A stretch of 58,005 bases of DNA from a virus (Duplodnaviria > Caudoviricetes), in the IMG/VR virus record IMGVR_UViG_3300032213_002204, positions 1 through 58,005 of that record. One strand, 5' to 3'. A program made the translations under genes and the position numbers. The notes under the pieces are model-generated. The model was not told the DNA's origin, did not search any database, and saw only the letters and a list, made by a program, of their open reading frames with translations. Positions 1 through 49,459 of this stretch are shown here, in pieces (position 1 is the first letter of the stretch; every line of letters begins with the position of its first letter).

Positions 1-353
1 CTACTGGGTTGCTTTTATTTTTACAAATAGAACCTGGGGGGGCCCCGCGAAGCGGGGGGGGACCAGAATAAGAATCAGCGCAGCAGTCCTGATAAAGGGC
101 TATTGAGTAAAAATTTATTTTTTACGAATAGGCCTAAGGCTGTGAGCAGGATTTCATATTATATGTCATTATAAGAAAAACATATAGAGAGTATATCAAT
201 ACACTCATTTGTTTTTCGCCGGCATATAACAATGAAACTCCCAAACTTATTCCAAAAAATATCATCACATCCACGTTGTAAACGCTGGATAACCTATGAT
301 ATACTAGATCCCAGCAAGGAAATCCCACTCAGAAACTCATAAAGGAGTACAAG

Positions 354-4469: not shown

Positions 4470-4650
4470 TGCTATACTAAGTACATGCCCCTCACGGGCA
4501 CGGGATACTAATTCCCACATGTAGCAAGGCAACTTGTGAAATGAGGAAAAACTTACCGCTGCCATAACTAGGCATGTAGTCCTTGTTTCGCAACCTGCGA
4601 TATACACTACTTGGAAGTTCCAAGGAGTGCTTACCGAAAGGAGCGAACCA
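4470..4650 (+). promoter_or_regulatory. extended -10 promoter plus structured ~165 nt 5' leader of the transglycosylase genes
   Basis: TGCTATACT at 4470-4478, then a run of hairpins including GCAA and GAAA tetraloops; the last one overlaps the SD. Confidence 0.5.
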
Positions 4651-5220
4651 ATGCAATTTAGGTTCATTAACATAATCAAGCAATTAAGAAACGATAAGAC
4701 TACTCTCGTCGCTTTCTTAAGTGTCCTAAGCATACTACTCATTACTCTGTTGACATCTTGTGGCAACAAAGTAGAAAGTAGTCAACCACCAATAACAGTA
4801 ACTGTCACTACAACTGTTCCAGTTGTTACAACGGTTCCTGTTCCCGAAACTACTTCGGCACCAACTACAACAATGCCTGATTTATCTGGCGTTGACTGGG
4901 TTGCTCTTGCAAGAGAGCAATATGGCAAGTGTGGCGAATGGCACGATCTTGCTATCTCAGTTGGCTGGCCTGAAGAAGAATGGAAACATCTTCAGCAAGT
5001 CATCTATCGCGAGAGCAGATGTCAAGCTGAAGCTTGGAATGGTTCAGATGGTGGCTTAACCCAAATCAACAGAATCCACACTCAGTGGCTTTCTGATATG
5101 GGTTACAAGTTTCCGGACGACATGTTTGACGCAGAGAAGAATCTCACATTCGCATTTCGTTTATGGGAGACTTCTGGATGGAGACCCTGGAAATCTTCAG
5201 GATCAACATTTGGTGCTTGA
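4651..5220 (+). CDS. lytic transglycosylase (SLT/lysozyme-like) lipoprotein
   Basis: lipobox LTSC, T/P-rich linker, IYRESRC catalytic Glu, GGLTQIN, GWRPW. Confidence 0.85.
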   Translation: MQFRFINIIKQLRNDKTTLVAFLSVLSILLITLLTSCGNKVESSQPPITVTVTTTVPVVTTVPVPETTSAPTTTMPDLSGVDWVALAREQYGKCGEWHDLAISVGWPEEEWKHLQQVIYRESRCQAEAWNGSDGGLTQINRIHTQWLSDMGYKFPDDMFDAEKNLTFAFRLWETSGWRPWKSSGSTFGA

Positions 5221-5222
5221 TC

Positions 5223-5729
5223 ATGACTATCAACAAGATAGTCTCAATCATAACAGCAACATTATTGTCTGCTGTTATTCTAATCACCAATACCAATACA
5301 TCTAATGCCCAAGCCGTACAGACTACTAATCCTCCAGTTGACTTGTCTCAAGTTAATTGGACAGAATTAGGTAGACTTATTTATGGTAAATGTGGCGAAT
5401 ATCACGACCTTGCTATCCAAGCAGGATGGCCAGAATCTCAGTGGCCTACACTGAGTAAAGTCATGTATCGTGAATCTCGCTGCAATACATTATCCTTCAA
5501 TAAGTCAGACCCTAATGGGGGTAGTCGTGGCCTTATCCAGATCAATGGATTCTGGTGTAGAAAAAATCGTTACACTCCCAATGGTTGGCTACAAGACAAG
5601 TCCATCCTCAACACATGTGACGATCTATTTGATCCACTAACTAACCTGCGTGCAGGGTGGTCTATGTGGCAATATAGTCAGGAACATAATCGTTGCGGAT
5701 GGAGACCATGGGCAACTAGATGTAAGTAA
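5223..5729 (+). CDS. secreted lytic transglycosylase, paralogue of the upstream gene
   Basis: signal peptide; YGKCGEYHDLA..GWP, MYRESRC, GLIQING, GWRPW. Confidence 0.85.
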   Translation: MTINKIVSIITATLLSAVILITNTNTSNAQAVQTTNPPVDLSQVNWTELGRLIYGKCGEYHDLAIQAGWPESQWPTLSKVMYRESRCNTLSFNKSDPNGGSRGLIQINGFWCRKNRYTPNGWLQDKSILNTCDDLFDPLTNLRAGWSMWQYSQEHNRCGWRPWATRCK

Positions 5730-5760: not shown

Positions 5761-5797
5761 AGGGGAGCTAGTTCCGAAAGGGACTGCTCCCCTTTTC
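5761..5797 (+). terminator. intrinsic terminator
   Basis: AGGGGAGC/GCTCCCCT stem, GAAA loop, T-run. Confidence 0.75.
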
Positions 5798-5801
5798 GTT
5801 A

Positions 5802-5838: not shown

Positions 5839-6270
5839 ATGTTTGCTTTCGTCATGATCTTAGCCTTTGCTTCTGCTGTAGTTGAGCTTACCTTTGCTTC
5901 CAAATTTCCAGTTTGGAGAAAAGCAGCTAAACGCAACAAAGCTATTAACCTTGCAATCTCAATTGCTCTTTCATTTGTCTTAGGTATTATGTTTGGTGCA
6001 GCTGGTCTTATCACCATGGCTGCTGCAATCATTTCTACCGTACTTGTTATTCCAGGTTATGCCTTTCTTGAATGGGCATATGATTCCCCACAGGCTCAGA
6101 CTCGTGGAGGTAATCAACTGAAGTATTTCTCAGACAAAACTAAGGAAGTTGTCTCTGACACTTTCAAAATTATTTACAAAATTCTCAGAGTTATTACTTT
6201 CCCAATTTGGGGAAGTCGAATTGCTCGAGATAAATATCGCAATTTCAAATTACGCACCCCACAAAACTAG
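5839..6270 (+). CDS. membrane protein
   Basis: about three hydrophobic helices; GAAAGG SD. Confidence 0.65.
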   Translation: MFAFVMILAFASAVVELTFASKFPVWRKAAKRNKAINLAISIALSFVLGIMFGAAGLITMAAAIISTVLVIPGYAFLEWAYDSPQAQTRGGNQLKYFSDKTKEVVSDTFKIIYKILRVITFPIWGSRIARDKYRNFKLRTPQN

Positions 6271-6317
6271 CTTTATTGTTCATACAAAAAAGCAGGTAAC
6301 TGCCTTAAGGAGGCTTT

Positions 6318-8864
6318 ATGGAAGAAATCTATACACCAAAAGTTCGCTTACAAGCAGAAGTCGATGGACCTTTACGCGGTGGCGAACGCTACCAATTTGG
6401 TTTCTATGACGCTGGTACCCTGCGTCAATCGATTGACACTATTGGGTTCGGAGGGTATAAAGTTTATACCATTCCGGTTCCCAATACTGAACTTCAGTTT
6501 CAAAAAGTTTCCGAAATGATTAATGACCCTAGCGTTCAATATGCTCTCGTAGATAAAGACAAAATTGTTTTTGTTGTTATCGAAAACTCTCCAGGTTGGA
6601 TGAGCTCTATTAATGCTATGGGTTATGAAGTCCATTCAGGACCCAAAACTAATAAAAGATTGAAATCATTCCATCGTCCAACTTTGTTGAACGGTCACTT
6701 TGATAATCTTAATATTAAAATTGTTGAGCCTACTGATTATTCTCGTTATAACTTCTTTGATGAGAATGATGACTGGGGCGTATCGTCCGAATACCGCAAT
6801 CCTGAAGTAATCGACAGATTGCTTGATGGCGGTTTCGTTATCAGTCGTCGTCTTATCCAGGAATCCGTAAAGAATATTCCCTTCCATACTCCCGATAATT
6901 CTCTCGAGGATCATGATTATTATTATGATCCTCGTCTTTATCAGAATATGGTTCAGGAACTTCTTAACTCTACTGTAGTTAATGCCCGCATTATTTACAA
7001 AGATGGATTCCTCAAAGGCAATGCATTCGTAGCAGATCTGCCAGAAGGCATTGACGTTATTACGGCTCGTACTAATATCAAACAGGAAATCACATATCCT
7101 AATGGTTTTCGCTTTCAAGCAGAACCTCAAGGCCCTAAGTCTAGAGTCATCACTGACGATCAGACTGTTATCAATCTTCCTAAACTATTCCGTAAGAGCG
7201 ACATGGAAATGTGGCTCCGCGAAGAGTACAAGAAGATGTTCGAGATGGCAACATCTGGAAATCTTCTAACTAATTGGAAGTATATCTATCAGAGAATGTG
7301 GCGTGAAACAGATACTGCTGAAGACAATGAAGCAAGAGCACGCATGGCATATGTGGGCTATCGCTGGACTGCAGCAGGATTTAGCATTACACAATCTCCT
7401 TGGCTCTTTGAGACAATCTCTACTAGCCACGCTAAGCCTTTGCAGAAGGCAATCATAGTTCCATGTTCAGTCTATGAACAGATCATTCCCGAAAGTCTTG
7501 CTCGCATGGCCGGACATGACCTATTCATTGAAGAGGGAACTATTGTTCGTAGTAACCAACTTGGTTGCCACGTTGTCAATGACATTGACTGGCTGGAAAT
7601 GTATGAAAGCCATGGTGGAATGGATGAGGATGACTTCTTCAAGTTGTTCTATCGAACAATGCAAGGTGGCGAATTCGACACCGAAAAAGTAGTCATCGTT
7701 GCCCGTTCTCCAAATGGCTATGGTGAGTATTCTATCTTCCGCTATGTTGAAGGCTCTTGGGCTCCAACATGGCACATGGCAGATGGAACTCCCGTTATGT
7801 TTCCCGAAGTAAATGGCAGATCATGGCCTAAGCGACTAAGCGAAGTAATTGCTTCAGGCAAAGTAATCCATAAGGGATTACCTTCTGACTCACTTCCTAA
7901 GCCAAAGCGTTCTGGCCCATATAGTCAAGCTGATGTCATTCGTGATATCAAGATTGCTATGGCTGGCGGAAACGTTGGCGGATTTGTTAATGCGGCAATG
8001 GCTCACAGTATGGTGATTTCTAAGCACCGTCCAGAACAACTGTGTACATTGGAAACCGCAATTGACAAGTGCATCAACCCTGATGACACTGCTGACGTTA
8101 TTGCTATCGATGAAGAAGCTAGATTAATGATGCGTGAAGTAATTAGTTCAGGCAAACCTATTGATCAAGACTTCTGGTATTCCCGCGGAATGAAGCGCTT
8201 TCTTAAGCGTGGTGAAACTGTTGAACTTTATGATGGTAAAATTAGTCAATTATATACTCTATGTAATGACTATTATCATCGTTATGTAAACAGCATTCGT
8301 CAATGGTCACAGCAAAATGCTCGACCTGACGATATTGTGCATAAACTTGGTGCACGTTTACGTCATCAAGCTTATCCAGTTTTACGTCAATTCCGCATGG
8401 ACCTATACAATACCAACTCCACTGAAGTAACAAAGAGTTCTGGAGCTATCCAGCGTAACTCTTGGGAAAACTTGTATGTAGGAATTGCAAATAAGATTAC
8501 ATCATATGAACGCATTATTGATTCATATGATTTTGTTATTGCTCTCTATTCCGAATCAATTAATAATCCCACTTCATCTGGAAAGATTACTGATCAGATC
8601 GTAATGAACAGATTCGTATTCCCATATCTTGAAGAAGCTCTTCAGTATTATGGGTTAGCCGCATCTGTTAAACGCGAATTGAACAATAATCGTTTACGTA
8701 TTGTTAATGAGCGTGTGACTAGTTGGATTTGGCAGGATTCTTCTGGCGAAGACGTAGAGTATACTGATCCGCTTGCTTTCCAAGCAGCGCACGCAGAGGA
8801 CTCTCCGATCATCTTCGTCAGTGCAAAACCTGCTCCAAGAAAACTTACACAATCGTTATACTGA
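6318..8864 (+). CDS. single-subunit two-barrel RNA polymerase-like protein (YonO / eukaryotic-RdRP-like)
   Basis: LLDGGFVIS, ARII...FLKGNAFV...NIK, GGMDEDD, ARSPN, NVGGFVN and TAIDK correspond to RdRP/YonO-family motifs; AAGGAGG SD. Confidence 0.7.
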   Translation: MEEIYTPKVRLQAEVDGPLRGGERYQFGFYDAGTLRQSIDTIGFGGYKVYTIPVPNTELQFQKVSEMINDPSVQYALVDKDKIVFVVIENSPGWMSSINAMGYEVHSGPKTNKRLKSFHRPTLLNGHFDNLNIKIVEPTDYSRYNFFDENDDWGVSSEYRNPEVIDRLLDGGFVISRRLIQESVKNIPFHTPDNSLEDHDYYYDPRLYQNMVQELLNSTVVNARIIYKDGFLKGNAFVADLPEGIDVITARTNIKQEITYPNGFRFQAEPQGPKSRVITDDQTVINLPKLFRKSDMEMWLREEYKKMFEMATSGNLLTNWKYIYQRMWRETDTAEDNEARARMAYVGYRWTAAGFSITQSPWLFETISTSHAKPLQKAIIVPCSVYEQIIPESLARMAGHDLFIEEGTIVRSNQLGCHVVNDIDWLEMYESHGGMDEDDFFKLFYRTMQGGEFDTEKVVIVARSPNGYGEYSIFRYVEGSWAPTWHMADGTPVMFPEVNGRSWPKRLSEVIASGKVIHKGLPSDSLPKPKRSGPYSQADVIRDIKIAMAGGNVGGFVNAAMAHSMVISKHRPEQLCTLETAIDKCINPDDTADVIAIDEEARLMMREVISSGKPIDQDFWYSRGMKRFLKRGETVELYDGKISQLYTLCNDYYHRYVNSIRQWSQQNARPDDIVHKLGARLRHQAYPVLRQFRMDLYNTNSTEVTKSSGAIQRNSWENLYVGIANKITSYERIIDSYDFVIALYSESINNPTSSGKITDQIVMNRFVFPYLEEALQYYGLAASVKRELNNNRLRIVNERVTSWIWQDSSGEDVEYTDPLAFQAAHAEDSPIIFVSAKPAPRKLTQSLY

Positions 8865-8876
8865 TTCATACAAAAT

Positions 8877-8918
8877 TGTGGGGGGTCGGCCCTATCCGAC
8901 CTCCCACATTCTATTTCT
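8877..8918 (+). terminator. GC-rich hairpin, probable terminator
   Basis: TGTGGGGGGTCGG/CCGACCTCCCACA stem followed by a T-rich tract. Confidence 0.6.
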
Positions 8919-8936: not shown

Positions 8937-9473
8937 ATGCAACCTATTAACAAATTTTTATATACAAATTTTAATTGTCCTTATCATACCTTTTCTGGTC
9001 TTACTTCTATAACTAAACAACACTTGCTCCAAGCTGGTTATTTAAATTTTTACGAATGCATTACTGCATCTCTCGATAGTTTTGACTACTACCGTATTCC
9101 TGGATCATCTTATCGTTCTATCTTAAAATGTTTATCAGTTTATAACTTACAAATTGGAATGTCTTCTCAAGAACTTTCCCATGCATTACGTAAACATTCA
9201 AGAGATCACTATAACAATAAAATAATTCCACGTATTCGTGAAGATATTCGTCAAGACAATCTCCGCAAAGAAGAACTTATTCGCCACCAAGAATATCGTA
9301 AAACTGTTTTAGATATTCTTTATTTAGAGTTTACTTATGGCTCTAAGCTTCTTGAGGAAAATTTAGATTCTGATACTCTTTATGAATATTTTAATTATGT
9401 TCATAAATACAGAATATATCATCCTTCTAACTATGATTATTTAACTTATAATCGTCAATATAATTGTTGTTAA
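8937..9473 (+). CDS. protein with an RNAP alpha-CTD-like N-terminal domain (putative)
   Basis: LTSITKQHLLQAGY...SYRSILKCLSVYNLQIGM aligns by eye with the alpha-CTD LTVRSANCL...SLTEIKDVLASRGLSLGM. Confidence 0.4.
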   Translation: MQPINKFLYTNFNCPYHTFSGLTSITKQHLLQAGYLNFYECITASLDSFDYYRIPGSSYRSILKCLSVYNLQIGMSSQELSHALRKHSRDHYNNKIIPRIREDIRQDNLRKEELIRHQEYRKTVLDILYLEFTYGSKLLEENLDSDTLYEYFNYVHKYRIYHPSNYDYLTYNRQYNCC

Positions 9474-10383: not shown

Positions 10384-10402
10384 CCACATCAATTAATATA
10401 CT

Positions 10403-10452
10403 AACCCAGTAGTAATGAATCTTCTTCATTGCTGCTGGGTTATTATTTTTTT
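10403..10452 (+). terminator. intrinsic terminator
   Basis: AACCCAGTAGTAATGAA/TTCATTGCTGCTGGGTT stem then T-run. Confidence 0.7.
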
Positions 10453-12844: not shown

Positions 12845-14518
12845 ATGTTATCTTTAAGACCTTATCAAGAAGAAGCATTAAAATCAATTAATGATTTTTC
12901 AGAAAAAGGAATTAATAAACAGCTTGTAGTCCTTCCAACAGGCGCAGGTAAAACTGTTATATTCTCACACCTCCCTCAGTTCAAAAAAGACAGTCTCCCT
13001 ATGCTTGTCTTAGCACACCGTGCAGAACTATTATATCAAGCTAAGGAAAAAATTAGCTGGTCTAATCCTGAACTTGATATTCAAATCGAGCAAGCAGATA
13101 ACATAGCAGGATACTGCGATGTCGTGGTTGCCTCAGTCCCAACTTTGGGACGAGCAGAATCAGAACGTATCTTAAAATATCCAAAAGATTATTTTAAATC
13201 TATAGTTATTGATGAAGCACACCACGCTGCTGCTCCTACATATCGGCGCATTTTAGATTACTTTAATGCACCATTTGTACTCGGAGTTACAGCTACTCCT
13301 CAAAGATCTGACAACACTCGCTTGACAGATGTCTTTGATGAAATAGTATACTATAAGACAATACAAGATCTTATCGAGGATGGTTACTTATGTACATTAG
13401 TCGGTTATCGAATCAAGACAGATACAGATATATCTGGAGTTGCAACTAATGAAGGAGATTACGTTGCGTCTCAGCTGGAAGATGCTATTGATACCCCTGA
13501 GCGTAATGCTCACATTGTTGCTGCTTATAATAGTCTGGTTCCAGAATCCAAAGCAATTGTATTCTGCGCGGGTGTCAAACACGCGAACAACTTGGCCACA
13601 TCCTTTGCGTCCGCGCAAATAAAAACGGAGGTAATCCTAGGTGCTACTGACTCAGATTCTCGTAGAGATATTCTGGCGCGTTTCCAAATGGGTACAACAA
13701 AAGTTCTCATCAATGTTGGCGTTCTTACGGAAGGGTTCGACGAACCAACCGTAGAGACTATCATTCTAGCTAGACCAACTAGATCTACTCTATTGTATAC
13801 ACAGATTGTTGGTCGAGGTACTAGACTTCACGAAGGGAAGCCGCATTGTACCGTCCTAGACTTTGCAGACACCACAAGAGGAAAGAAGCCTATTGGCCTT
13901 CCTTCTCTTCTAGGCCTGCCTCCCGAATTCGATTTACAGGGACAAGACCTTATCGAAGTAGCTAAAAAATACAAGGAGCTCGAGGACTATTGTCCAGGCG
14001 AAGCCGTTCGTGTATTAGACCCTAATGATATAGAGTTAGCTTATAAGAGAATTAATCTCTTCATGCCACCCCCACCAAATGAATTTGTTCAACAATATTC
14101 TAGATTTGTGTGGGCTGAAGTTGCCGAAAACGACTATCATCTTGGCGTGGATAATTATAATTCATTTAGAATATACACTGACACACTAGGTAGATGGGTC
14201 GTTGAACATCGTCAGCGTACTTCAGATGGAGTTCAAGTAAAACTTTTAGGACATCCTGAAGATATGCGTGATGCATTTGTCCGTAGTGACAGATGGATCA
14301 TGGCAAAGTTTGATACCAATCTTATTGAATCAGACGCTGCCTGGCGTGCAGATGGTCCAACTGACGCTCAAAGAAAACTCTTAAAGCGTATCGGTGTACC
14401 CGTTACTTCTGATATGACTAAGGGAACTGCTAGTCAAATTATTAGCAAATACTATGAAGCTAATCCTAGACCAGCATGGTTAGATAAAAGAATTAAAACA
14501 ACACGCTCTAAGTGGTAA
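12845..14518 (+). CDS. SF2 DEAD/DEAH-box helicase (Irc3/ResIII-like)
   Basis: LRPYQ, PTGAGKT, IDEAHH, TATP, LTEGFD, QIVGRGTR. Confidence 0.95.
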   Translation: MLSLRPYQEEALKSINDFSEKGINKQLVVLPTGAGKTVIFSHLPQFKKDSLPMLVLAHRAELLYQAKEKISWSNPELDIQIEQADNIAGYCDVVVASVPTLGRAESERILKYPKDYFKSIVIDEAHHAAAPTYRRILDYFNAPFVLGVTATPQRSDNTRLTDVFDEIVYYKTIQDLIEDGYLCTLVGYRIKTDTDISGVATNEGDYVASQLEDAIDTPERNAHIVAAYNSLVPESKAIVFCAGVKHANNLATSFASAQIKTEVILGATDSDSRRDILARFQMGTTKVLINVGVLTEGFDEPTVETIILARPTRSTLLYTQIVGRGTRLHEGKPHCTVLDFADTTRGKKPIGLPSLLGLPPEFDLQGQDLIEVAKKYKELEDYCPGEAVRVLDPNDIELAYKRINLFMPPPPNEFVQQYSRFVWAEVAENDYHLGVDNYNSFRIYTDTLGRWVVEHRQRTSDGVQVKLLGHPEDMRDAFVRSDRWIMAKFDTNLIESDAAWRADGPTDAQRKLLKRIGVPVTSDMTKGTASQIISKYYEANPRPAWLDKRIKTTRSKW

Positions 14519-17110: not shown

Positions 17111-17539
17111 ATGAAAAAAATTATTATAGCCACATCTATTTTATTAACACTTACAGCTTGCGGAAGCAAGACTGTATACGTCACCAGCACTGAAGCGCCT
17201 GAGACAACAGTCAAGGTTGTCAAGACAACTGACGCACCAATTGCCACCTCACCAATGGACACTTATGCTCCGCCAGTCACATGGACAGACGAAGACGAGT
17301 TCATTGCAGACATCTACAACGAAAACACTGGCCCCATTTACCTTGAAGACCAAGACCTGATTGACACAGGATATGCCGTTTGCGAAGGATTGCGTAGTGG
17401 CATGAGTGGCTACGACGCCATTAATGCAATCACTTCATCAGCCGAAGGCAATGCTGCTGTAGAAGAACTCCTTATTAATGTTACAGCATCCGCCGTCATT
17501 AACTTTTGTCCCGAACAACAATATAAATTTAATGAATGA
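17111..17539 (+). CDS. DUF732-family lipoprotein
   Basis: lipobox LTAC; DEDEFI...GYAVCEGLRSG...AVINFCPE. Confidence 0.8.
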   Translation: MKKIIIATSILLTLTACGSKTVYVTSTEAPETTVKVVKTTDAPIATSPMDTYAPPVTWTDEDEFIADIYNENTGPIYLEDQDLIDTGYAVCEGLRSGMSGYDAINAITSSAEGNAAVEELLINVTASAVINFCPEQQYKFNE

Positions 17540-17757
17540 GAGATTTTGCAATGACCACTAGAGATACTTATGACATTTTGTCTTATGAACAAGAGCAAAA
17601 CCAGCCCGTAACTGGAATAAACATTCAAATCAATACCCTAATTGATGCAATGATTGACGCTGAAAAATGCTTGTTCCACAATAGTGACTCTAACTTAATG
17701 CCTGTCAATGATTCAATTTTGAATATAGACATTAAAGCTCAACACCCTAGAGGATAA
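17536..17757 (+). CDS. hypothetical protein
   Basis: ORF track; start uncertain. Confidence 0.4.
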   Translation: MRDFAMTTRDTYDILSYEQEQNQPVTGINIQINTLIDAMIDAEKCLFHNSDSNLMPVNDSILNIDIKAQHPRG

Positions 17758-17761
17758 TTAT

Positions 17762-18226
17762 ATGGATCCGTTATTAGATATCTTTAATTCTTTTTTGTCA
17801 GAATATACCAAAACAAATGGATGGGATAGTCCCGCTTCCGTTTGGTTCTGGGATTACGATTCTTCTCAATGGAATTCTATTGAAGAATCTTATCAGGATC
17901 CATATGATTTAATCCCAACGCTTGTCGTCCATGGCTACCATGGTGCAGCTATGTTTGTAGTCCATGGATGGGCAGCTCCCTATAGTGAATATGAATATGA
18001 TGAATATGGAGAACCCACTCGTCCATCTAAGCATCCTGAGAGAATGCGAGTTCGTTCTTTCACTTATCTCAGTGGTGAAAATATTTTAAATTCATATCAG
18101 ATTATGGGCAAACCTATTGAAGAAGTTGAAGCTGAACCCGAAGGTGCTATTATTGATAGCATCATTATTGCCATCCACAAAATGAAAAAATACTTAGCTA
18201 AGGAAGTTTACAGTGAACAAGATTGA
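17762..18226 (+). CDS. hypothetical protein
   Basis: GAGG SD; GWAAP...RPSKHPERMRVR. Confidence 0.65.
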   Translation: MDPLLDIFNSFLSEYTKTNGWDSPASVWFWDYDSSQWNSIEESYQDPYDLIPTLVVHGYHGAAMFVVHGWAAPYSEYEYDEYGEPTRPSKHPERMRVRSFTYLSGENILNSYQIMGKPIEEVEAEPEGAIIDSIIIAIHKMKKYLAKEVYSEQD

Positions 18227-18692
18227 TTCTATTTTAAATAAAATTCTTTATGCTGTTGCTGTTTTATTTTTTCTTATAGCAGCTATTATACTTTTAACTG
18301 GCTGCGCAGTTACTCAAAGTGATACAACTACTACCTTGAAACCTATGCGCCCCACCAATGTTACTGTAGTTATTACTGATCCACAAATTATTCCATCATT
18401 TTCTGGAACAGTCAATAATACTTATATTCAAACTGTTGAGTTTTTTTATCAGGGAACTCCACCAGTTTCTGATCAAGTTATTATGGAATTCGGTGAGCAA
18501 TGGTGTGATCTATTGATAGATGGCATGCAGCCCGATGATGTTATTAACAGAATCCATGAAGGCGCTATTGATAACGACGATGCTCGTATGCACTTTTCAA
18601 TTGTAAATGCTGCTATACTAGAGCTTTGTCCCAGCCAATCCCATAAGTCTGAAGAGATCGCACTTAGATCTTTTCTTCCTAAGGAACAATAA
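18213..18692 (+). CDS. DUF732-like lipoprotein
   Basis: lipobox LTGC; FGEQWCDLLIDG...AAILELCP. Confidence 0.7.
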   Translation: MNKIDSILNKILYAVAVLFFLIAAIILLTGCAVTQSDTTTTLKPMRPTNVTVVITDPQIIPSFSGTVNNTYIQTVEFFYQGTPPVSDQVIMEFGEQWCDLLIDGMQPDDVINRIHEGAIDNDDARMHFSIVNAAILELCPSQSHKSEEIALRSFLPKEQ

Positions 18693-22818: not shown

Positions 22819-24489
22819 ATGTCTGAACAAATTTCTTTTGATGACCTTCCCGTCATCTGGATGGAAGATGGTCTTCCTTGTTTCATGGGAGACCGTGCTG
22901 ATATCTGTGACCTCGCAGAATCCTTTGGATTTAATATATACTATCTATTAGCTAATCAAGCTAAAGAGGTCAAGCCTACACCTCCTCCGTCTAACACCAC
23001 TTATGGCAAACCCGCTGCTACTGCCTTGGCTGTTGCTCCTCCTACTTTTGTGAGAAATTCTCAAATCTATCGAGTAGTTAATAACTTTGTAGGTAGAACA
23101 GTTACTGTTTGTTCTCCTTCTTTTCCTCAATCATTTATTGATGTTGAAGAAGAAGCTACTTATTCGATGCCTGCTATTCCGCATATCTTAATCGATAAGC
23201 TAGATCAGTTCTTTAGACTCGTTGATGCACAACACGGTGCTGAATCTATTGTCATGCTTACCTATGACACCACTAAAGAAGGATCAGAAGGATGGGGCAT
23301 TCTTGTTCCCGATCAAACCAATACTTCTGTTCACTGTAATTATGATCCAGACAGCATCGCTCAAGTTAAGCCTGATGAAGTTATGATTGTAGGATCAGTT
23401 CACAGTCATCCTGGAATGTCTGCGTATGCTTCCGGAACAGACCATGCTGATCAAGCAGATTTTGATGGAATCCATATTACTTTTGGCTGGCAAAAGACAG
23501 TTAACAATGGTGCTACTCAATACTACGCTGAACTTCAAATGGCTGGCAAAGCCTATAAGCTTGACATCGAAGATGTCTTTGAAGAATATATTATTGAAAA
23601 AGCTCCTGATCCTGAAGTAGTAGGTTGGACTGAAAAAGTAAAAAAAGCCAACCCCCCCAAAGCGGGGGGTTCGGTTACGGTAACTACTGGGGCGGCGTAT
23701 CAGGCCCCTCGTCCAAACACGAATCAAGGGACTCCGGCCTCTACGGTAGCTGGTACTCTCCCTAAGAATCAATATTATATAGATTATCCTTCTCATATTA
23801 AAAATATAACACATGATGTTATAGATATTGACAATGATAATATTCTAGTTTGCGAGGTTGTTGGTAACTATGAAAACAAAACCTACAATTGTCCAGGTTG
23901 CTTCTCCATTATTGCTAAGCATGATGTGTATGCTAGTAACTGTTGCCCTTTTTGCGATATACCCTTATCTGAACAGGATACAACAGCAGACCAAATAATT
24001 TGGGATATGTTTCAATATTGCAATGATAGAAAAATTCCCACTAATGCTTCTCTGTATTTACTAACTGCAGATCTTGACAATTCTCCAATGCTTCTTAGGC
24101 TTACTGCAGAAACAATGGACGCTTATTCAGATTCTGCTTGGATAGATATAGAAGATAAAGCTTTAGATGTCGATCCTAGGTTGACGCTCTGCTGCAGCAT
24201 GATTCCAGAAAACTGCATGTGCCCTACTCAGGTTGTCACTTATGACTCTATGGATTTTGATCAATTCATGGGCAAGTCTTCAGTTTATGTCGCTAGTTCT
24301 GCTTGTGAAGTATGCAATTATTACTACGATACAAATTGTCCTAGCTATAGCAAAGCTATTGTAGATTTTAAATCAAATACAAATCAATCAGACAACAAAG
24401 ATAAATACGAAGATTCTATCGATGGAGTCAATTGCGACTTCTTTTCCGAATACACCTATTCTACTTCCGAGGATATTTATAATTCATGA
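22819..24489 (+). CDS. JAB/MPN+ metallo-isopeptidase with Cys-rich C-terminal extension
   Basis: upstream Glu (AESIV), IVGSVHSHPGMSAYASGTD (HxHx7Sx2D), GIHITFG. Confidence 0.9.
   Translation: MSEQISFDDLPVIWMEDGLPCFMGDRADICDLAESFGFNIYYLLANQAKEVKPTPPPSNTTYGKPAATALAVAPPTFVRNSQIYRVVNNFVGRTVTVCSPSFPQSFIDVEEEATYSMPAIPHILIDKLDQFFRLVDAQHGAESIVMLTYDTTKEGSEGWGILVPDQTNTSVHCNYDPDSIAQVKPDEVMIVGSVHSHPGMSAYASGTDHADQADFDGIHITFGWQKTVNNGATQYYAELQMAGKAYKLDIEDVFEEYIIEKAPDPEVVGWTEKVKKANPPKAGGSVTVTTGAAYQAPRPNTNQGTPASTVAGTLPKNQYYIDYPSHIKNITHDVIDIDNDNILVCEVVGNYENKTYNCPGCFSIIAKHDVYASNCCPFCDIPLSEQDTTADQIIWDMFQYCNDRKIPTNASLYLLTADLDNSPMLLRLTAETMDAYSDSAWIDIEDKALDVDPRLTLCCSMIPENCMCPTQVVTYDSMDFDQFMGKSSVYVASSACEVCNYYYDTNCPSYSKAIVDFKSNTNQSDNKDKYEDSIDGVNCDFFSEYTYSTSEDIYNS
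23640..23765 (+). other. candidate -1 ribosomal frameshift cassette with a 39-codon alternative tail
   Basis: in-frame A AAA AAA heptamer; AACCCCCC/GGGGGGTT hairpin just downstream; -1 frame reads SQPPQSGGFGYGNYWGG...WYSP*. Confidence 0.6.
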
Positions 24490-25247
24490 ACTCACAACCA
24501 AAACGCTTTATACTAGTTGGAGCAGGTGGCATTGGCACTTGGCTTGCAGCAGGTCTTGTTAGACTTCTTGAATGGAAGTTTCCTGGATCTGCTCTTATCA
24601 TCGTTGACGGTGATACCTATGAGGAAAAAAATAAAGAACGACAAGACTTTACTAAGCTTGGCAATAAAGCCGTAGTTAAAGCTACTGAACTTGTTCCTCA
24701 ATTTCCCAAAACTACAATTATACCTGTAGCTAAATGGGTAGTGGCCGATGATTATTCTGGTGTCACTGACGAAGAAAGTCCTAAGATTACAGCTTCTCAA
24801 CTTATACGTGAAGATGATGTAGTCTTTGCAGTCGTTGACAACTTTGCTGCTAGAAAAATTATATTTGATGCTGCCGCTAAGTTGAACAATATTGACGTCT
24901 TTACTGGCGGTAATGATGATGACCTTTTTGGTTCTATCTATCATTACCAAAAGCGAGATGGTTACGAAGTAACCGTTCATCCAGCTGAGTTCCATCCAGA
25001 ATATCACAATCCTCCTGACAAGAATCCCGGTGAGCTTTCTTGCCAAGAGCGTTCAGAGATATCAGGAGGCACTCAACTACTTGCTACTAACATGGCTGTT
25101 TCAGCCTACATTCTAGGACGAGTTCAGAAAACAATCGTGTCCAATCAAAGTCCTGAAGAAACAGAGATTTTCTTTGATCTTGGTCTCGGTAAGTCCGAAC
25201 CCTATAATAGAACCACATCAGCTCTCAATCAACCAACCACAGTATAG
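24486..25247 (+). CDS. E1-like ThiF-family adenylyltransferase
   Basis: VGAGGIG, VDGDTYEEKNKERQ, VDNFAARK, candidate catalytic Cys in LSCQ. Confidence 0.92.
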   Translation: MNSQPKRFILVGAGGIGTWLAAGLVRLLEWKFPGSALIIVDGDTYEEKNKERQDFTKLGNKAVVKATELVPQFPKTTIIPVAKWVVADDYSGVTDEESPKITASQLIREDDVVFAVVDNFAARKIIFDAAAKLNNIDVFTGGNDDDLFGSIYHYQKRDGYEVTVHPAEFHPEYHNPPDKNPGELSCQERSEISGGTQLLATNMAVSAYILGRVQKTIVSNQSPEETEIFFDLGLGKSEPYNRTTSALNQPTTV

Positions 25248-25260
25248 TTAGGAGAATATC

Positions 25261-25515
25261 ATGGAAGCATCAAACGCATCGAACGCTCAGCCAAATCGTT
25301 CAACTGGTATGGCGAATATTCGCTATGGAGTTTACAACCAGCCCAGTAACATTGGTGGAAAGTCCATTCGTGAAGTTCGCGAACAGTTCAGCAAAATTTG
25401 GGGCATTCCCTCTGACGCAGTAGCTTACTGCGGCAAGGACAAGCTCGACGAGAACGCGGTTATTCAGCCAGGTCAAAACGTAGAGTTCCACCGCCGTGCA
25501 GGCGAAAAGGGCTGA
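25261..25515 (+). CDS. ubiquitin-like (beta-grasp) modifier protein
   Basis: GKSIREVR...GIP......LDENAVIQPGQNVEF pattern; exposed C-terminal RRAGEKG; follows E1. Confidence 0.85.
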   Translation: MEASNASNAQPNRSTGMANIRYGVYNQPSNIGGKSIREVREQFSKIWGIPSDAVAYCGKDKLDENAVIQPGQNVEFHRRAGEKG

Positions 25516-25528
25516 TTAACCCATATTC

Positions 25529-25568
25529 GGGGGAGGGTGCTGCTGGCATCCTCCCCCATATTTTTTTT
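25529..25568 (+). terminator. intrinsic terminator after the Ubl gene
   Basis: GGGGGAGGGTGC/GCATCCTCCCCC stem, then ATA and T8. Confidence 0.75.
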
Positions 25569-25603
25569 ATAAAGCCTACAGTTAGTTTGACGGTGAAAAA
25601 ATT

Positions 25604-27214
25604 ATGTTTGACAAAATTAAATTAGGTTATCCTAATATCTGGATTAAGGATTCTGATTCTTCCAGAATTATAGATATCATTACTACTACTCTTCCTAGAG
25701 ATTTTTATACTATTGATTTCCTTTCTGGATTCTCATTGTATTCCAATAATGCTTGGAAGACTGTCTTGGTAGAAAATCCAGCCTTTCAGTTAACTGGCGA
25801 AGACCAGTACATTTCCACCTTTGACCCTCAGGTTTCCTTAGATTATTTATTGCATAATCCTGACCGTCCCAAGAATCCCACAACTCTTATTATTGATGTC
25901 GTAGGTAAGCCCGACTCTGCTTTGGAAAACTATGGTTTATTTCTAAGTCATTTGAAATCTAAATATCGTCAAGCTTTTTGGCAAGATGACATGAGTCTTC
26001 TTCCACTGCAGTTTATTTTTATTTCAACACAGGATTGTCCGGAAGACTATCTTCCTTACTTTAATGTCAATGAAGACGTTATGCCCAATCCTCAAGAGCT
26101 AGCTACTATTGTTACTCATATTAATGAATCTGCACATGACCGCCTTCTCAATAACACTAGCGTCAAAGACGTTGTTAATGCCGGCATTGGACTCACCGAG
26201 TCTCAATTCATTGATCTTTGCTTAACGTCTATCGTTAATACTTCTCAACTTGATCCTAAATTCATTTACGATCAAAAGATGGCCAGCATTAAAAAGAATG
26301 GCATTCTAGAAATTATTAAACCCACTACTTCTTTTGCTGATATTGGTGGACTTAATAATATTAAAGATATCATTCGTCGAACCGCAGTACTCTGGAACGA
26401 TAAAGATCGAGCCAAATCTTTTGGAGTTACTCCTATCCGTAGACTTCTTATGGTTGGAGTTCCCGGCACTGGCAAATCAGCTATATGCCAGGCCACTGCA
26501 AATGAGCTTGGCTTAGACTTGGCACGTACAGGCATCAGTCAAGTTATGAACTCTTTCATTGGTCAATCAGAGGCCAACATGCGTGCCGTATTCAAACAGA
26601 TTAGACTTATGTCTCCCTTATGTGTTTGGATTGACGAGTTCGGTCGTGATCTTTCCGGCGGATCTAGTTCTTCCCATGTAGATGGTGGCACTACTGATCG
26701 TGTTCATGGTGAGTTCTTAACTGGTCTTCAGGAACTTCCAGAGGAAACATTCCTGCTTTGTGCAGCCAATCAACTAGAAGCTCTTCGTCCAGAAATGTTA
26801 CGCGCAGATCGCTTTGACAAAATTATGTTTGTTGGACTTCCTTCTCATGAAGAGCGTAAACATATTTTTCATATTCACTTAGATAAAATTGACACTGATC
26901 ATGATTATGATTATGATTCTTTGGCCGAAGCTTCTAAGTATATGACTGGTGCTGAGATTCTTTCTCTTATCCGTGAAACAAAATTCTATGTAGTTTCAGA
27001 ATCTCTTCGCCCTATAACTACCAAAGATATCCTTAGTTTTATTCCTAAAACCAAAAACACTATTTGGCTCAAACATAATGACATGGTTATGTCCATGTAT
27101 CAGTATGCCTTAGAGCAGTGGGATTGGGCCTCGACAGAACAAATGGAAGATGCTAGAATCATACTAGGAAAGTCTTCTGTTAAAAAACAAACGTCAACAA
27201 TTGCTTGGAAATAA
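25604..27214 (+). CDS. classical AAA+ ATPase (Ycf46/Cdc48-like)
   Basis: SFADIGGL, GVPGTGKS, FIGQSEAN, WIDE, AAN...PEMLRADRFD, TGAEI. Confidence 0.92.
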   Translation: MFDKIKLGYPNIWIKDSDSSRIIDIITTTLPRDFYTIDFLSGFSLYSNNAWKTVLVENPAFQLTGEDQYISTFDPQVSLDYLLHNPDRPKNPTTLIIDVVGKPDSALENYGLFLSHLKSKYRQAFWQDDMSLLPLQFIFISTQDCPEDYLPYFNVNEDVMPNPQELATIVTHINESAHDRLLNNTSVKDVVNAGIGLTESQFIDLCLTSIVNTSQLDPKFIYDQKMASIKKNGILEIIKPTTSFADIGGLNNIKDIIRRTAVLWNDKDRAKSFGVTPIRRLLMVGVPGTGKSAICQATANELGLDLARTGISQVMNSFIGQSEANMRAVFKQIRLMSPLCVWIDEFGRDLSGGSSSSHVDGGTTDRVHGEFLTGLQELPEETFLLCAANQLEALRPEMLRADRFDKIMFVGLPSHEERKHIFHIHLDKIDTDHDYDYDSLAEASKYMTGAEILSLIRETKFYVVSESLRPITTKDILSFIPKTKNTIWLKHNDMVMSMYQYALEQWDWASTEQMEDARIILGKSSVKKQTSTIAWK

Positions 27215-41503: not shown

Positions 41504-41727
41504 CATTTAATGAATGGCTCCAAATCGGCATTGATAACAGATGGTGTGGTCCGGCTATTTGCGAGACCCATGATAGCCTACCCCTTACGGAGGATGAGTC
41601 AGAGATGATATGGAGTGGAGATGATCCCTGTATCCACATTATACGCCTCTATGAGAGCCCCGAACACGCTGAGGCTATAGAGCAGTCACATTCTCCATCT
41701 ATGTGGAGAAAACCCTATATAGGGTAA
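41500..41727 (+). CDS. phage hypothetical protein
   Basis: GAGG SD; WCGPAICETHD...GDDPCIHIIRLY. Confidence 0.65.
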   Translation: MTFNEWLQIGIDNRWCGPAICETHDSLPLTEDESEMIWSGDDPCIHIIRLYESPEHAEAIEQSHSPSMWRKPYIG

Positions 41728-41786
41728 ATTTGAAAAAAAATTTTGAAGGCCAAATTCGTTTTAGAAGAAAGTTTAGTTTTTGGAAA

Positions 41787-42395
41787 ATGAATATTAATAT
41801 TGAATCTTTAATAAATTTAAATATATTTACAACAAAACTGTTAGATATTGATAATAATTTTTTGTCTAAAAATATATTAGATAATTTAAACACCCCAAAT
41901 GTGCCAGGATTTTTAGAATCACATAATCATACTTATCACGAAGATACTATTTTAAATGAATCTGAAGAATTAAATAAATTAATAACAGAAATAGCAATTT
42001 TTGCAGGAGATGTAACCAGCAGGAAATATATTTTAGAATCAATTTGGGGACTTGTCTTAAATAAGGGACAGTCAGTTATGATGCACACACATAAATCCAA
42101 TAGGCATATGCACCCGGAGGAATATTATTCAATTGCATATTACCCACAGGTTCCAGAAGGTTCAGCTGACTTGATATTTTCATTAAATTATTGTAATATA
42201 ATTGAGGAAGTAAAAAGAATCAAGCCAGAAGAAGGTCTGCTAGTTATGTTTAATTCTTACATACCACACATGACAAGTGATCATAAGTCGCAAATTCCAA
42301 GAATTGTGATAAGTGCAAATATTGCACCGGAAAATCCAAACACAGAAATAGTACCAGATTGGTCTCCATATAAACTAAGGAATAGCAATGAATAA
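41787..42395 (+). CDS. 2OG-Fe(II) oxygenase-like protein
   Basis: W......HTH, SIAYY, PEEG.LVMFNSYIPH, RIVISAN. Confidence 0.8.
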   Translation: MNINIESLINLNIFTTKLLDIDNNFLSKNILDNLNTPNVPGFLESHNHTYHEDTILNESEELNKLITEIAIFAGDVTSRKYILESIWGLVLNKGQSVMMHTHKSNRHMHPEEYYSIAYYPQVPEGSADLIFSLNYCNIIEEVKRIKPEEGLLVMFNSYIPHMTSDHKSQIPRIVISANIAPENPNTEIVPDWSPYKLRNSNE

Positions 42396-42565
42396 CAATG
42401 TTATGTTTTGTTCAGATCCATATGCGCAAAGCGCAGAATATTATTATGATATTGATTTTAAATATAAAATAATAGCTATAGATAATCTAAATAATATAAT
42501 TGACGAAGCCGCAAAAGAATTCGTTATTCAATGCTCAAGTAACGCACTAGCCTAAGGTTGACCGG

Positions 42566-43246
42566 ATGTTTCTTTTGGATAATTTTATTAAAGATGATCA
42601 ATTAATCTCTGCTATTAAATCTGACAAAGATTTTTTTCCAGATACATCAGATGTAGATAATATTGGTCAATACAATAATCATTTTCATAGTGGTATGTCG
42701 TCATGTCACGCTCCCTACATGTTTTGGGATGGTTGGTGGTCTTCACCAGCTAATACCCTGAGGAAAAAGGTTATTGAAAAAATATGGACCCATACTGATA
42801 CCTTACCAATTTCAATAAAAGAAGTTTGTGGATTTGAGTATTGGTGTAGGACTTTTAAGGAAGGGCAATATTTAGATGTTCATGTGGATGAAGACACATT
42901 TGCCTACTCTAAAGATAAGACATTTAATGCCCCTGTTTATGGGGCAATTTGGTACGGTTTTTCAGAATGCCAAGAAGGTGGATTTTTAGAGATTCATAAG
43001 AATAGCATAGAAGGTTTTCCAAAAAATATATTAGAAAAAGAAAATTTTAATAACTTTATTTCTAGTGCAAATGAAAAAGAAAGAATAGCTTACGTTCCAA
43101 ATAGATTAATAACATTTGATGCCGGAAGACGCGTGCACGAAACTACCAAAATTGTTTCCGGAACTAGGCAAGTTATGGTTATTAATATTTGGCATAAGGA
43201 TTGTCCGCCATCGGCATTAAGAACCGGTGAGTTCTATTATGAATGA
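42566..43246 (+). CDS. 2OG-Fe(II) oxygenase-like protein
   Basis: GFEYW, HVDED, GGFLEI, PNRLITFD...H, R. Confidence 0.8.
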   Translation: MFLLDNFIKDDQLISAIKSDKDFFPDTSDVDNIGQYNNHFHSGMSSCHAPYMFWDGWWSSPANTLRKKVIEKIWTHTDTLPISIKEVCGFEYWCRTFKEGQYLDVHVDEDTFAYSKDKTFNAPVYGAIWYGFSECQEGGFLEIHKNSIEGFPKNILEKENFNNFISSANEKERIAYVPNRLITFDAGRRVHETTKIVSGTRQVMVINIWHKDCPPSALRTGEFYYE

Positions 43247-43757
43247 TGTATTTATTATTAATAACTTTTATAAAAACTGTGACGAAATTTTACAACATAT
43301 ATCTTTTAATCAGAATCTATACACCTTTCATCAAGGAGATAATGCCTATAATTACAGTAGTTTTCCAGAAACAAATGATATAGATTTAATTATTGATTTT
43401 TGTGATAGCATAAGGTATGAAATACAAGACAAATATAATGTTAAATTAAAAAGTAGGAATCATCTTAATGCGTTAATTTATTTAATCGGAGGGCAAAAGG
43501 GTCCACACACAGATGAGTACCATAATGCCGATGACTTAGTCAATAGAAAAAAAATACATGTATATAGTTCAGTTTATTACCCCAATGATGATTACGTTGG
43601 TGGTGAGCTATGTTTTCCAAATATTAATTTAAAAATTAAACCAGAAAAAAATTCTTTAGTTCTTTTCCCTTGCGAATATTTACATTACGTAGAGAAAATA
43701 ACATCAGGAAATAAAATATCAATCACTCACTTTTGGGAGCTTTCAAATGAATTATAA
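43227..43757 (+). CDS. prolyl-4-hydroxylase-like 2OG-Fe(II) oxygenase
   Basis: HTD, YPNDDYVGGELCF, KP..LVLFP...HYV. Confidence 0.85.
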   Translation: MSSIMNDVFIINNFYKNCDEILQHISFNQNLYTFHQGDNAYNYSSFPETNDIDLIIDFCDSIRYEIQDKYNVKLKSRNHLNALIYLIGGQKGPHTDEYHNADDLVNRKKIHVYSSVYYPNDDYVGGELCFPNINLKIKPEKNSLVLFPCEYLHYVEKITSGNKISITHFWELSNEL

Positions 43758-44322
43758 AGGATCTAGTGGACAAGAGCAATTTGTTCTAGAATTATTAAAC
43801 TATAAAAAAAATGGATACTATGTGGAGCTTGGAGCATTTCATTCCACGTTGGGTAGCAATACATATCATTTGGAAAATGATTATGATTGGAATGGTGTCT
43901 CTTTTGAAATAGACGAAAAAAGAAAAGAAGAATTTATTTCAAATAGAAAAAATCCATGTGCCGGAGACGCGTTAAAGTTTAATTATATATCTTATTTTGA
44001 AGAAAATAATTTTCCAAAACAAATAGATTATTTACAAGTAGACATAGATAATGGCTACGATATAGATTGTAAACCCTTTGGCAATCATTACACTACATTA
44101 TTAGGATTGATTAGTGTTCCATTAAGTTTGTATAGATTCACAATTATAACTTTTGAACATGACACAAATATGTACTTTAGAAATAAAGGAATGCGTGACG
44201 CGCAGAGAGAGATTTTAGACTGCCTAGGGTATACGCTTGTAGTGAGAGAACAGCACGAAGACTGGTGGGTAGACTCAAATGTAATACCAATTAATACATA
44301 CAGAAAATATCTTAGATCCTAA
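43747..44322 (+). CDS. FkbM-family methyltransferase-like protein
   Basis: GYYVELGA...SNTY.LE...WNGVSFE, IDYLQVDID, ITFEHD, EDWWV. Confidence 0.8.
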   Translation: MNYKGSSGQEQFVLELLNYKKNGYYVELGAFHSTLGSNTYHLENDYDWNGVSFEIDEKRKEEFISNRKNPCAGDALKFNYISYFEENNFPKQIDYLQVDIDNGYDIDCKPFGNHYTTLLGLISVPLSLYRFTIITFEHDTNMYFRNKGMRDAQREILDCLGYTLVVREQHEDWWVDSNVIPINTYRKYLRS

Positions 44323-47831: not shown

Positions 47832-47894
47832 TTTTATTTATTAACTCCTAATGTCTTACAATAAATTATACCATAAATCAGAGTGGATCTATGG

Positions 47895-48635: not shown

Positions 48636-48949
48636 TACACCACCTGCTTAGCAAATTGCATCCAAGACCATAGTCTTCTGATGTTTGAAATTACATTTTT
48701 ATTTATTGATTTTAAATACATATCTGAACTTAAGTTTGGGTTTATTTCTCCTAAATCAGTATTTATTATTTTATTGTCATAATAAAATGTATATCTAATT
48801 CTTTCAATAATATCATCTATAGTTATAAAATATAAATCACTTTCATTAAAGCCAATTAGGTAAAATATATATAATATTTGTTCTTCCACATAATTAAGAT
48901 CACTATTAGGACTGTATCCTGGACTATTTTTTGAACAGACTCTTGACAC
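48635..48949 (-). CDS. hypothetical protein
   Basis: coupled ORF. Confidence 0.6.
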   Translation of the reverse strand: MSRVCSKNSPGYSPNSDLNYVEEQILYIFYLIGFNESDLYFITIDDIIERIRYTFYYDNKIINTDLGEINPNLSSDMYLKSINKNVISNIRRLWSWMQFAKQVV

Positions 48950-49215
48950 TATGAGTCCTTTTCCTTGTTCGGATTGATGGTGTCAATTTCGCCATTTTGT
49001 AGGATAGTACAAATATAACTTTGATTCTCAATGCTATTAACGCCATAAGTTTCGGGACTCCATTTGGTTATTGTATCCTGTTTTCCAGGAATGTCGTATG
49101 GTCCGTCTCCTAGTTCGTCTTGCTTTTGCTGCATTAATATACTCATATTAATGTTGATTTTTTCTGCGTGTTGTTTTAAGTTTTCTTTTTTAATTTTAAT
49201 AATTTTATTTTTCAT
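48949..49215 (-). CDS. hypothetical protein
   Basis: AAGGA SD; coupled ORF. Confidence 0.55.
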   Translation of the reverse strand: MKNKIIKIKKENLKQHAEKININMSILMQQKQDELGDGPYDIPGKQDTITKWSPETYGVNSIENQSYICTILQNGEIDTINPNKEKDS

Positions 49216-49228
49216 AAAAAATCCTTAA

Positions 49229-49447: not shown

Positions 49448-49459
49448 AATAACCTCTTT

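Follow-up and report, generated by a model that had tools for sequence, protein, structure and literature searches.

What does the open reading frame (ORF) at 6318..8864 on the plus strand of IMG/VR virus record IMGVR_UViG_3300032213_002204 (Duplodnaviria; Caudoviricetes) encode, and how is its putative catalytic centre built? We analysed a 58,005-nucleotide stretch covering positions 1 to 58,005 of that record (the window). The ORF starts with ATG and specifies a protein of 848 amino acids (aa) that, judged from its AlphaFold2 (AF2) model and the fold matches of that model, appears to be a single-chain two-barrel polymerase. In it a metal-binding loop comes before an R-x-P motif that precedes such loops in known enzymes of this kind. 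The original prediction read this order as a circular permutation of one of two double-psi beta-barrels (DPBBs). Our analysis bears out the reversed order and the predicted two-barrel fold, and favours a different account of how the order arose.

Predicted fold and family

We built an AF2 model of the whole protein with a 66-sequence alignment (predicted local distance difference test score (pLDDT) 91.1; predicted template modelling score 0.90). In this model two barrels surround the putative active site, followed by helices of the bridge-helix type and of the trigger-loop type, so that the two DPBB domains expected by the original prediction are present at the level of the whole protein. A Foldseek search of the Protein Data Bank (PDB) gave 23 matches at E ≤0.001. 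Among the matches listed QDE-1 is the best (3.8e-9), and maize and Arabidopsis RDR2, P74-26 gp62 and the gp64 entry 8f72 also appear; the tail holds gp66 of the crAss-like phage phi14:2 (E 1.7e-3) and P23-45 gp96, below which only unrelated noise follows. VIA-align placed the same proteins ahead of the rest, its two values being 12.1 and 577 for RDR2, 10.4 and 593 for QDE-1, 9.6 and 404 for gp64, 9.2 and 401 for gp62, 6.8 and 312 for gp96, and 6.8 and 507 for gp66, compared with 4.6 and 81 for the next, unrelated structure. As a statement about the predicted fold, the assignment to the single-chain two-barrel polymerases is thus well supported.

The first, DPBB-B-like barrel spans residues ~101-290 (6618..7187, borders approximate), as placed by residue conservation and a YonO-like motif order. 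It carries K113-R114 (6654-6659), the LLDGGFVIS segment (D170-G171 to S176, 6825-6845), K233-G234 (7014-7019) and K255 (7080-7082). A helical connector (residues ~291-377, 7188..7448; model helices 293-312, 334-352 and 361-376) leads to the DPBB-A-like candidate catalytic barrel with its non-canonical motif order (residues 378-478, 7449..7751); by analogy with the layout of single-chain two-barrel RNA polymerases (RNAPs) described in PMC10770324, the connector may have a clamp-like role. The catalytic barrel contains the putative metal-binding loop G433-G-M-D436-E-D438-D439 (residues 433-439, 7614..7634), identified from alignment conservation, and R463-S464-P465 within VIVARSPN (7704..7712). 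Helices 537-566 and 578-611 (7926..8150), with the conserved G554, N558 and D583, are a candidate bridge-helix and trigger-loop region, and the model ends in a helical region and a small beta domain (residues 612-848, 8151..8861). All the motifs that had been named from the sequence, namely DGxxxIS, R...KG...K, GxxxN and AID, are found in the translation, as LLDGGFVIS, R224...K233-G234...K255, G554xxxN558 (7977-7991) and A581-I582-D583 (D583 at 8064-8066), and the GGMDEDD loop lies where it had been placed.

The protein belongs to a large family that is unnamed in metagenome collections. Searches of metagenome protein collections found 223 relatives at E ≤0.001, and an exhaustive HMMER scan found 233 representatives of clusters at 50% identity, of which 142 reach E ≤1e-10; none of the metagenome relatives has a precomputed Pfam domain or a name beyond 'hypothetical protein', and the two members held in BFVD are both entered as 'Uncharacterized protein [uncultured Caudovirales phage]'. 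The 848-aa protein has no match in PHROGs, nor among PDB sequences searched by phmmer, and the ESM Atlas gave no usable match and held no model. A tblastn search of 50,697 deposited phage records with the protein was also negative, a null that we take as sound because YonO, used as query against the same records, matched 40 of them. When the alignment was used to seed a further homologue search, only the close cluster already known came back, and nothing connected it to PF05183, the RdRP family of eukaryotic RDR and YonO-like proteins. Automatic annotation has thus left this lineage without a name, as had been anticipated. Individual members carry additional features: P0267 has a C-terminal helix-hairpin-helix DNA-binding domain (HHH_5, E 6.4e-12), and P0242 has a sub-threshold NADAR match.

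Order of motifs and strands in the catalytic barrel

The usual order of the motifs is clear from two well-characterized relatives. In YonO (yonO of SPBc2) R492-S-P494 lies ahead of D535-N-D537-G-D539, the sequence reading ILRSPHLFREHG, then ~40 residues, then FDNDGD; R492, P494, D535, D537 and D539 are invariant in 35/35 rows of the YonO family. According to PMC9508822, QDE-1 has its R-X-P 'Pro-Gate loop' (R962-S963-P964) at residues 962-964 of DPBB2, catalytic aspartates at D1007, D1009 and D1011, and a fourth catalytic aspartate, D709, in DPBB1. The same source describes R962 as hydrogen-bonding two 2'-OH groups, one at the RNA 3' end and one on the incoming nucleoside triphosphate (NTP), and P964 as sensing the minor groove, reports that the P964A substitution cripples the enzyme, and equates the loop with R446/P448 of RNA polymerase II (Pol II) and R425 of Escherichia coli RNAP. 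The motif is thus found 43-45 residues ahead of the triad in YonO and QDE-1. Over all enzymes checked, Pol II and E. coli RNAP included, the distance is ~35-45 residues.

In the 848-aa protein the order is reversed. Its R-x-P stands 24 residues past the triad, counted from D439 to R463 (the sequence-based estimate had been about 23), instead of 45 residues before the aspartate loop as in QDE-1. The triad itself is D436-x-D438-D439, which keeps three acidic residues and departs from the DxDxD signature given in PMC10770324 and PMC7824862. The first barrel, by comparison, runs in the familiar order, a basic K/R motif followed by D-G and then K-G, the same as the invariant R152/K154, D249-G250 and K271-G272 of YonO. 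By analogy, D170 may be the counterpart of the fourth catalytic aspartate of QDE-1, and G554xxxN558 and D583 may correspond, by order and spacing alone, to N1087 of its bridge helix and D1116 of its trigger loop.

We aligned 141 family sequences, down to ~20% identity. K113, D436, D438, D439, R463 and P465 are invariant in all 141, which settles the question of whether the aspartate cluster is conserved among homologues, and the D, R and P motifs are therefore not a product of chance. Conservation reaches at least 90% at R114, D170, G171, K233, G234, K255, Q282, G433, G434, G469, G554 and D583; the counts among the 141 rows are 137 for G433, 127 for G434, 137 for G554, 123 for N558 and 138 for D583. 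The regular expression D.DD.{15,40}R.P matches 256 of the 259 family proteins of at least 600 aa, and the three that it misses (P0145, P0209 and P0232) are alignment rows that carry the D, R and P residues; presumably they have the 14-residue spacing that a second expression found three times. Family-wide, the last aspartate and the arginine are 14-36 residues apart, most commonly 23-24.

Our literature searches, which included the accessible parts of PMC7824862, PMC10770324 and 10.1101/2020.03.07.982082, found no description of a two-barrel polymerase with DxDD or with the reversed order; the supplementary alignments of 23 RNAP families in PMC10770324, which may include this family, lie outside that scope. 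As far as these searches reach, the combination of DxDD and reversed order is undescribed.

The family shares much with known systems in spite of this difference. Like Neurospora QDE-1 and plant RDR2, RNA-dependent RNA polymerases of eukaryotic cells (PF05183), the protein runs from a first barrel through a connector to a catalytic barrel and then helices, and has G-G before the aspartate loop, an R-S-P motif and an aspartate in the D-G motif of the first barrel. It differs from them in showing no detectable sequence similarity (~10% identity in the structural alignment), and from QDE-1 in having DxDD in place of DxDGD and in being phage-encoded; the C-tail through which QDE-1 is described as forming dimers was not noticed here, although no search was aimed at one. 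YonO, the single-chain DNA-dependent RNAP of Bacillus prophage SPbeta, is likewise phage-encoded and single-chain, has a similar length (839 aa) and has the same motif order in the first barrel. The YonO family also has four invariant C-terminal cysteines, and 40 of the 141 members here have a CxxC...CxxC motif in their last 110 residues, although the 848-aa protein does not. However, the two family profiles show no significant similarity, RSP precedes DNDGD in YonO, and the relatives of YonO have a PF05183 domain and are present in 40 of the deposited phage records, neither of which holds for the new family. The Thermus phage proteins P23-45 gp64 and gp96, a non-virion and a virion RNAP respectively, were recognised by the DxDxD signature (PMC10770324), in contrast to the DxDD and reversed order seen here, and gp64 is smaller than the 848-aa protein; P74-26 gp62, also of a Thermus phage, is likewise a non-virion RNAP. 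The weakest of the RNAP structural matches is gp66 of phi14:2, a virion-packaged protein (2,166-residue chain in 6vr4) with DFDxD, as described in 10.1101/2020.03.07.982082.

How the strands are connected around the two motifs can be read from the model. A strand (384-391), a helix (392-397), two strands (408-412 and 417-420) and a helix (422-432) lead into the GGMDEDD loop, which is followed by a strand (440-449), a tight turn, a strand that ends in RSP (457-463), the loop NGYGE and a further strand (472-476). The tight turn has a glycine, G455, in 115 of the 141 rows. We compared this arrangement with residue covariation, using mean-field direct-coupling analysis (DCA) of 241 family sequences (effective number 150) and, as background, matched random segment pairs scored in the same way. 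Three antiparallel ladders stand out: 456-463 with 471-478 (E-F; score 2.01, reached by 0.010 of random pairs), 440-447 with 456-463 (D-E, i+j=904; 1.87, 0.013) and 385-391 with 440-447 (strand D; 1.48, 0.028). Covariation thus supports an antiparallel meander 385-391 / 440-447 / 456-463 / 471-478. The D-E ladder pairs R463 with F441 and P465 with D439, and the invariant arginine and proline therefore return beside the aspartate loop, where the Pro-Gate of QDE-1 acts.

On these models the active site is probably conserved in space and its connectivity changed. The canonical DPBB has the order b1-b2-a1-b3-b4-b5-a2-b6 with two psi loops. Relative to it, our best current reading of the model is that two strands, the Pro-Gate strand and its successor, once preceded the unit formed by strand, helix, metal loop and strand and now come behind it, with a new hairpin as the link; the RSP segment would then be the spatial equivalent of the canonical Pro-Gate loop. 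A circular permutation in the true sense, with the barrel halves exchanged, is unlikely because the metal-loop strand is linked to RSP by a tight hairpin and not by a beta-beta-alpha-beta unit. The term 'circularly permuted' in the original prediction therefore overstates the evidence, and we prefer a local transposition. A Foldseek search with the isolated domain (residues 372-530, pLDDT 94.4) returned nothing at E ≤0.001, which fits an altered connectivity and is only suggestive of it. Comparison with YonO by hhalign points the same way at low strength: the best local match sets VARSPNGYGEYSI against ILRSPHLFREHGV, RSP segment on RSP segment (E 0.003 in a one-template comparison, probability 9.7%, and thus weak), and the metal-loop segment does not align to DNDGD of YonO. 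A separate local match of the metal loop to the last barrel strand and helix of YonO (E 0.016) was not trusted.

We put forward tentatively, and at somewhat less than even confidence, the full form of this reading: that these proteins are a widespread unnamed lineage of ~200-kb freshwater phages in which the Pro-Gate strand has moved behind the metal loop and re-enters as a hairpin, with one psi-loop crossing lost, DxDxD changed to DxDD and the geometry kept. They would then provide the first case in nature of a catalytic barrel of the RNAP superfamily with altered connectivity, and would be the sole RNA polymerase found in the phages concerned. Parts of the covariation data tell against such a transposition. 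Only three to five ladders rise above background; a signal for 385-391 running parallel to 407-413 (fraction 0.034) does not fit the first strand mapping; and for strands 407-413 and 416-421 the B-C, B-F, C-F and X1-C pairings all fall within background, and two alternative mappings remain.

A rather unlikely alternative is that the barrel has canonical connectivity and nothing is permuted. The RSP hairpin (456-478) would then have been inserted behind the last barrel strand in this lineage alone and would only mimic a Pro-Gate, the true equivalent being either lost or located upstream. R378-x-P380 could be such an equivalent, as it lies 58 residues ahead of D436, a near-canonical spacing, and is basic at R378 in 112 and has P380 in 97 of the 141 rows; these two positions are not invariant, however, whereas R463 and P465 are. 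Sequential structural alignment also lays residues 383-446 over a whole designed DPBB (7dww_A 4..89; 52 residues aligned, root-mean-square deviation 2.5) and over PEX1-N, and the stretch up to and including the metal loop can therefore lie colinear on a full barrel. Yet the models show only two strands between helix 392-397 and the metal loop, where a canonical barrel is expected to have three. The weakness of the RSP-to-RSP profile match suits an insertion, but the pattern of RSP, 4-6 residues, G-E and a strand resembles RSPHLFREHGV of YonO, and covariation places R463 and P465 beside D439 and F441, the site at which the R-X-P of QDE-1 acts according to PMC9508822.

Role in the phage

The genomes of relatives bear on what such an enzyme would do. 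The relatives sit on IMG/VR contigs, the near-complete ones of ~170-210 kb and one of 268 kb, and 9 studies of freshwater, among them lakes and rivers, have metagenomes that contain near-identical DNA. Whole relative records were searched by six-frame hidden Markov model matching, chiefly in four near-complete relatives (G002, G004, G005 and G006; 92-100% complete, 194-210 kb), three of which are 100% complete with terminal repeats; complete relatives measure 202-210 kb. All four encode a DnaE-type Pol III alpha subunit (PF07733; E ~1e-92 to 1e-94, open frames of 933-1114 aa), and a replicative DNA polymerase is therefore already present. PF00562 (beta), PolA, PolB and Sigma70_r2 were each found in 0/4, as was PF00940 (T7-type RNAP), for which there was no positive control among 14 control genomes. 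PF00623 (beta') was found in 0/3 relatives (80-92% complete, 169-194 kb; only G002 is common to both sets) and was never sought in the three terminal-repeat genomes.

With DnaE present and no other RNAP or sigma factor found in the relatives searched, the simplest role for the protein is that of the phage's own transcriptase. From the predicted fold we hold it fairly probable that the protein is a single-chain two-barrel nucleotide polymerase in the clade of RDR/QDE-1, YonO and P23-45 gp64, and most likely the phage's own DNA-dependent RNA polymerase, with a rewired catalytic barrel; its catalysis, template and product are inferred. Such an enzyme would transcribe part of the ~200-kb genome. 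The first barrel would supply the basic residues K113/R114, K233 and K255 and a fourth acidic residue, D170, and D436, D438 and D439 of the second barrel would bind two catalytic Mg2+ ions. R463-S-P465, as the Pro-Gate loop, would probe the incoming NTP at its ribose 2'-OH and minor groove; the Pro-Gate strand, encoded past the metal loop, would come back to the active site by pairing in a hairpin with the strand that leaves that loop. The active site would thus be kept in space while the barrel is rewired and the aspartate triad compressed from DxDxD to DxDD. By analogy with QDE-1, the invariance of R-x-P suggests that the substrates are ribonucleotides. Parts of 6154-8885 are covered by contigs from 4 metatranscriptome runs of 3 studies; this is compatible with expression but only a weak hint, as such libraries can contain DNA; gaps in this cover, such as 9015-9415 in 3/4 runs, carry no weight.

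Several results weigh against a transcriptase of this kind. The polymerase assignment draws wholly on predicted structure, and none of the sequence methods links the family to any polymerase. Pfam gave two sub-threshold, irrelevant matches to the 848-aa protein and no polymerase family at E ≤1; PF05183 had no match at that threshold, and PF00562, PF00623 and PF00940 are not among the matches. For 26 distant family members polymerase families were found in 0/26, and PF05183 in 0/26 at E ≤0.01. The family profile searched against PDB sequences had an unrelated protein as its best match (E 0.12), and hhalign of the 66-sequence family alignment against a 35-sequence YonO alignment gave E 0.11 and a probability of 0.5%. 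The metal motif is DxDD instead of the defining DxDxD, and no widely repeated promoter was found. In addition, the primase families DNAG_N, Toprim_2, Zn_ribbon_DnaG and Prim-Pol, the four that were searched, were each found in 0/4 near-complete relatives at E ≤0.01, which leaves room for a priming role.

That role defines one alternative, in which the protein is a priming RNA polymerase that makes primers for the phage DnaE-type polymerase and is not a transcriptase. In its favour, the missing primase matches coincide with DnaE in 4/4 relatives, and the gene lies within 4 kb of a superfamily 2 (SF2) helicase (12845-14518), in a plus-strand block common to SSB and UDG. However, the phage could borrow host DnaG, a divergent primase may escape the four family models, and we know of no two-barrel enzyme that is a dedicated primase; we regard this role as improbable. 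An RNA-templated polymerase that serves host takeover or counter-defence by making double-stranded RNA or small RNAs, and not phage mRNA, strikes us as very improbable. The best structural matches are indeed RDR2 and QDE-1, and QDE-1 is active on both DNA and RNA templates according to PMC9508822, but the phage relatives YonO, P23-45 gp64 and gp96 are described, in the literature consulted, as DNA-dependent transcriptases, and the lack of another RNAP or sigma factor in the relatives' searched genomes creates an obvious need for one. Scarcely credible, finally, is the idea that the protein synthesizes DNA with a core like that of RNAPs, as archaeal PolD does. The two-barrel fold is common to PolD (PMC7708050 and PMC4996933), and PolA and PolB were not found in the four relatives; against this, the relatives have DnaE, no PolD chain is among the structural matches listed, and the invariant R-x-P, which contacts the 2'-OH in QDE-1, speaks for ribonucleotides. 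Of these roles we regard that of a DNA-dependent transcriptase as the most likely.

Surroundings of the gene and wider implications

By direct reading of the sequence, a ribosome-binding site (AAGGAGG, 6307..6313, plus strand) precedes the polymerase gene. Upstream of it, at 6272..6290 (plus strand), lies a conserved motif, TTTATTGTTCATACAAAAA, whose core TTCATACAAAA has its first base 39 nt ahead of the start codon and was identified by its count and its presence in relatives. The 19-mer form TTTATNGTTCATACAAAAA, with at most 3 mismatches, has 6 matches in the window against 0.30 expected, and TTCATACAAAA is the commonest 11-mer of the window outside tandem repeats. Its five exact copies, at 5802, 6279, 8865, 10457 and 41102, are all intergenic and on the plus strand. 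Two of them come after terminator-like hairpins (5775-5798 and 10402-10442), and another is directly past the stop codon of the polymerase gene. In L003, L004, L005, L015 and L017, relatives that are ~75% identical, the core likewise stands 39 nt upstream of the homologous gene. Whole relative genomes hold 1-4 copies, which rules out a general phage promoter and indicates that TTCATACAAAA marks a small set of genes; from its sequence context TTTATTGTTCATACAAAAA is a candidate promoter or operator of that set. Matches of the sigma-70 promoter type are not enriched around the gene (15 vs 18.8 expected). Downstream, a terminator-like hairpin of 13 pairs (9 G-C) with a T-rich tail (8877..8908, plus strand) starts 13 nt past the stop codon.

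Just upstream of the polymerase gene, at 4627-5729, two overlapping ORFs similar to SLT and lysozyme domains share an 80%-identical 54-nt repeat (4921-4974 and 5382-5435); they might encode virion-associated wall-degrading proteins. Seven tRNA genes, all on the plus strand, lie between 2923 and 37106 (Arg-tct, Leu-taa, Lys-ttt, Met-cat, Thr-tgt, Ile-tat and Asn-gtt). Proteins of the DUF732 family are best known in actinobacteria, and the two encoded at 17111-18692, the first with a lipoprotein signal (LPAM_1), may hint at the host. The products of three neighbouring genes at 22819-27214 (plus strand) are a protein with a JAB domain (22819-24489; Prok-JAB, E 3.1e-5), one like ThiF/E1 (24486-25247; E 5.7e-12) and an ATPase of the AAA+ type (25604-27214); together they resemble a module, carried by the phage, for conjugation or deconjugation of a ubiquitin-like protein.

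The region 41703-53525 holds, on both strands, at least nine paralogous genes for proteins like 2-oxoglutarate- and Fe(II)-dependent oxygenases (phrog_61, phrog_81), an unusually large expansion for a phage, and among them a glutathione peroxidase (50378-50998) and a DUF6065 protein (51269-51994). The minus-strand gene 53544-55031 has fibronectin type III domains, and at its 3' end lies a tandem array of the 12-nt unit GGTGGGAAANNN (53521-53790, ~20 copies), which is translated into a repeated short peptide. Within the tail-fibre gene 55152-57620 (minus strand), five 186-nt direct repeats of 66-74% identity (56193-57236) correspond to repeated 62-aa modules.

The catalytic barrel and its DxDxD and R-x-P motifs are the best-conserved features of cellular RNA polymerases as a whole and are used as a search signature. 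P23-45 gp64 and gp96, for example, were found through such a signature, according to PMC10770324. A family of 233 clusters (at 50% identity) that keeps the fold with a reversed order and an altered aspartate spacing escapes signature searches as well as Pfam and PHROGs. If these proteins are active, the barrel tolerates natural rewiring, which would bear on the evolution of the barrel fold, and they would offer enzymology a compact new polymerase. Their activity would also explain how transcription proceeds in freshwater phages in which no sigma factor or other RNAP was found.

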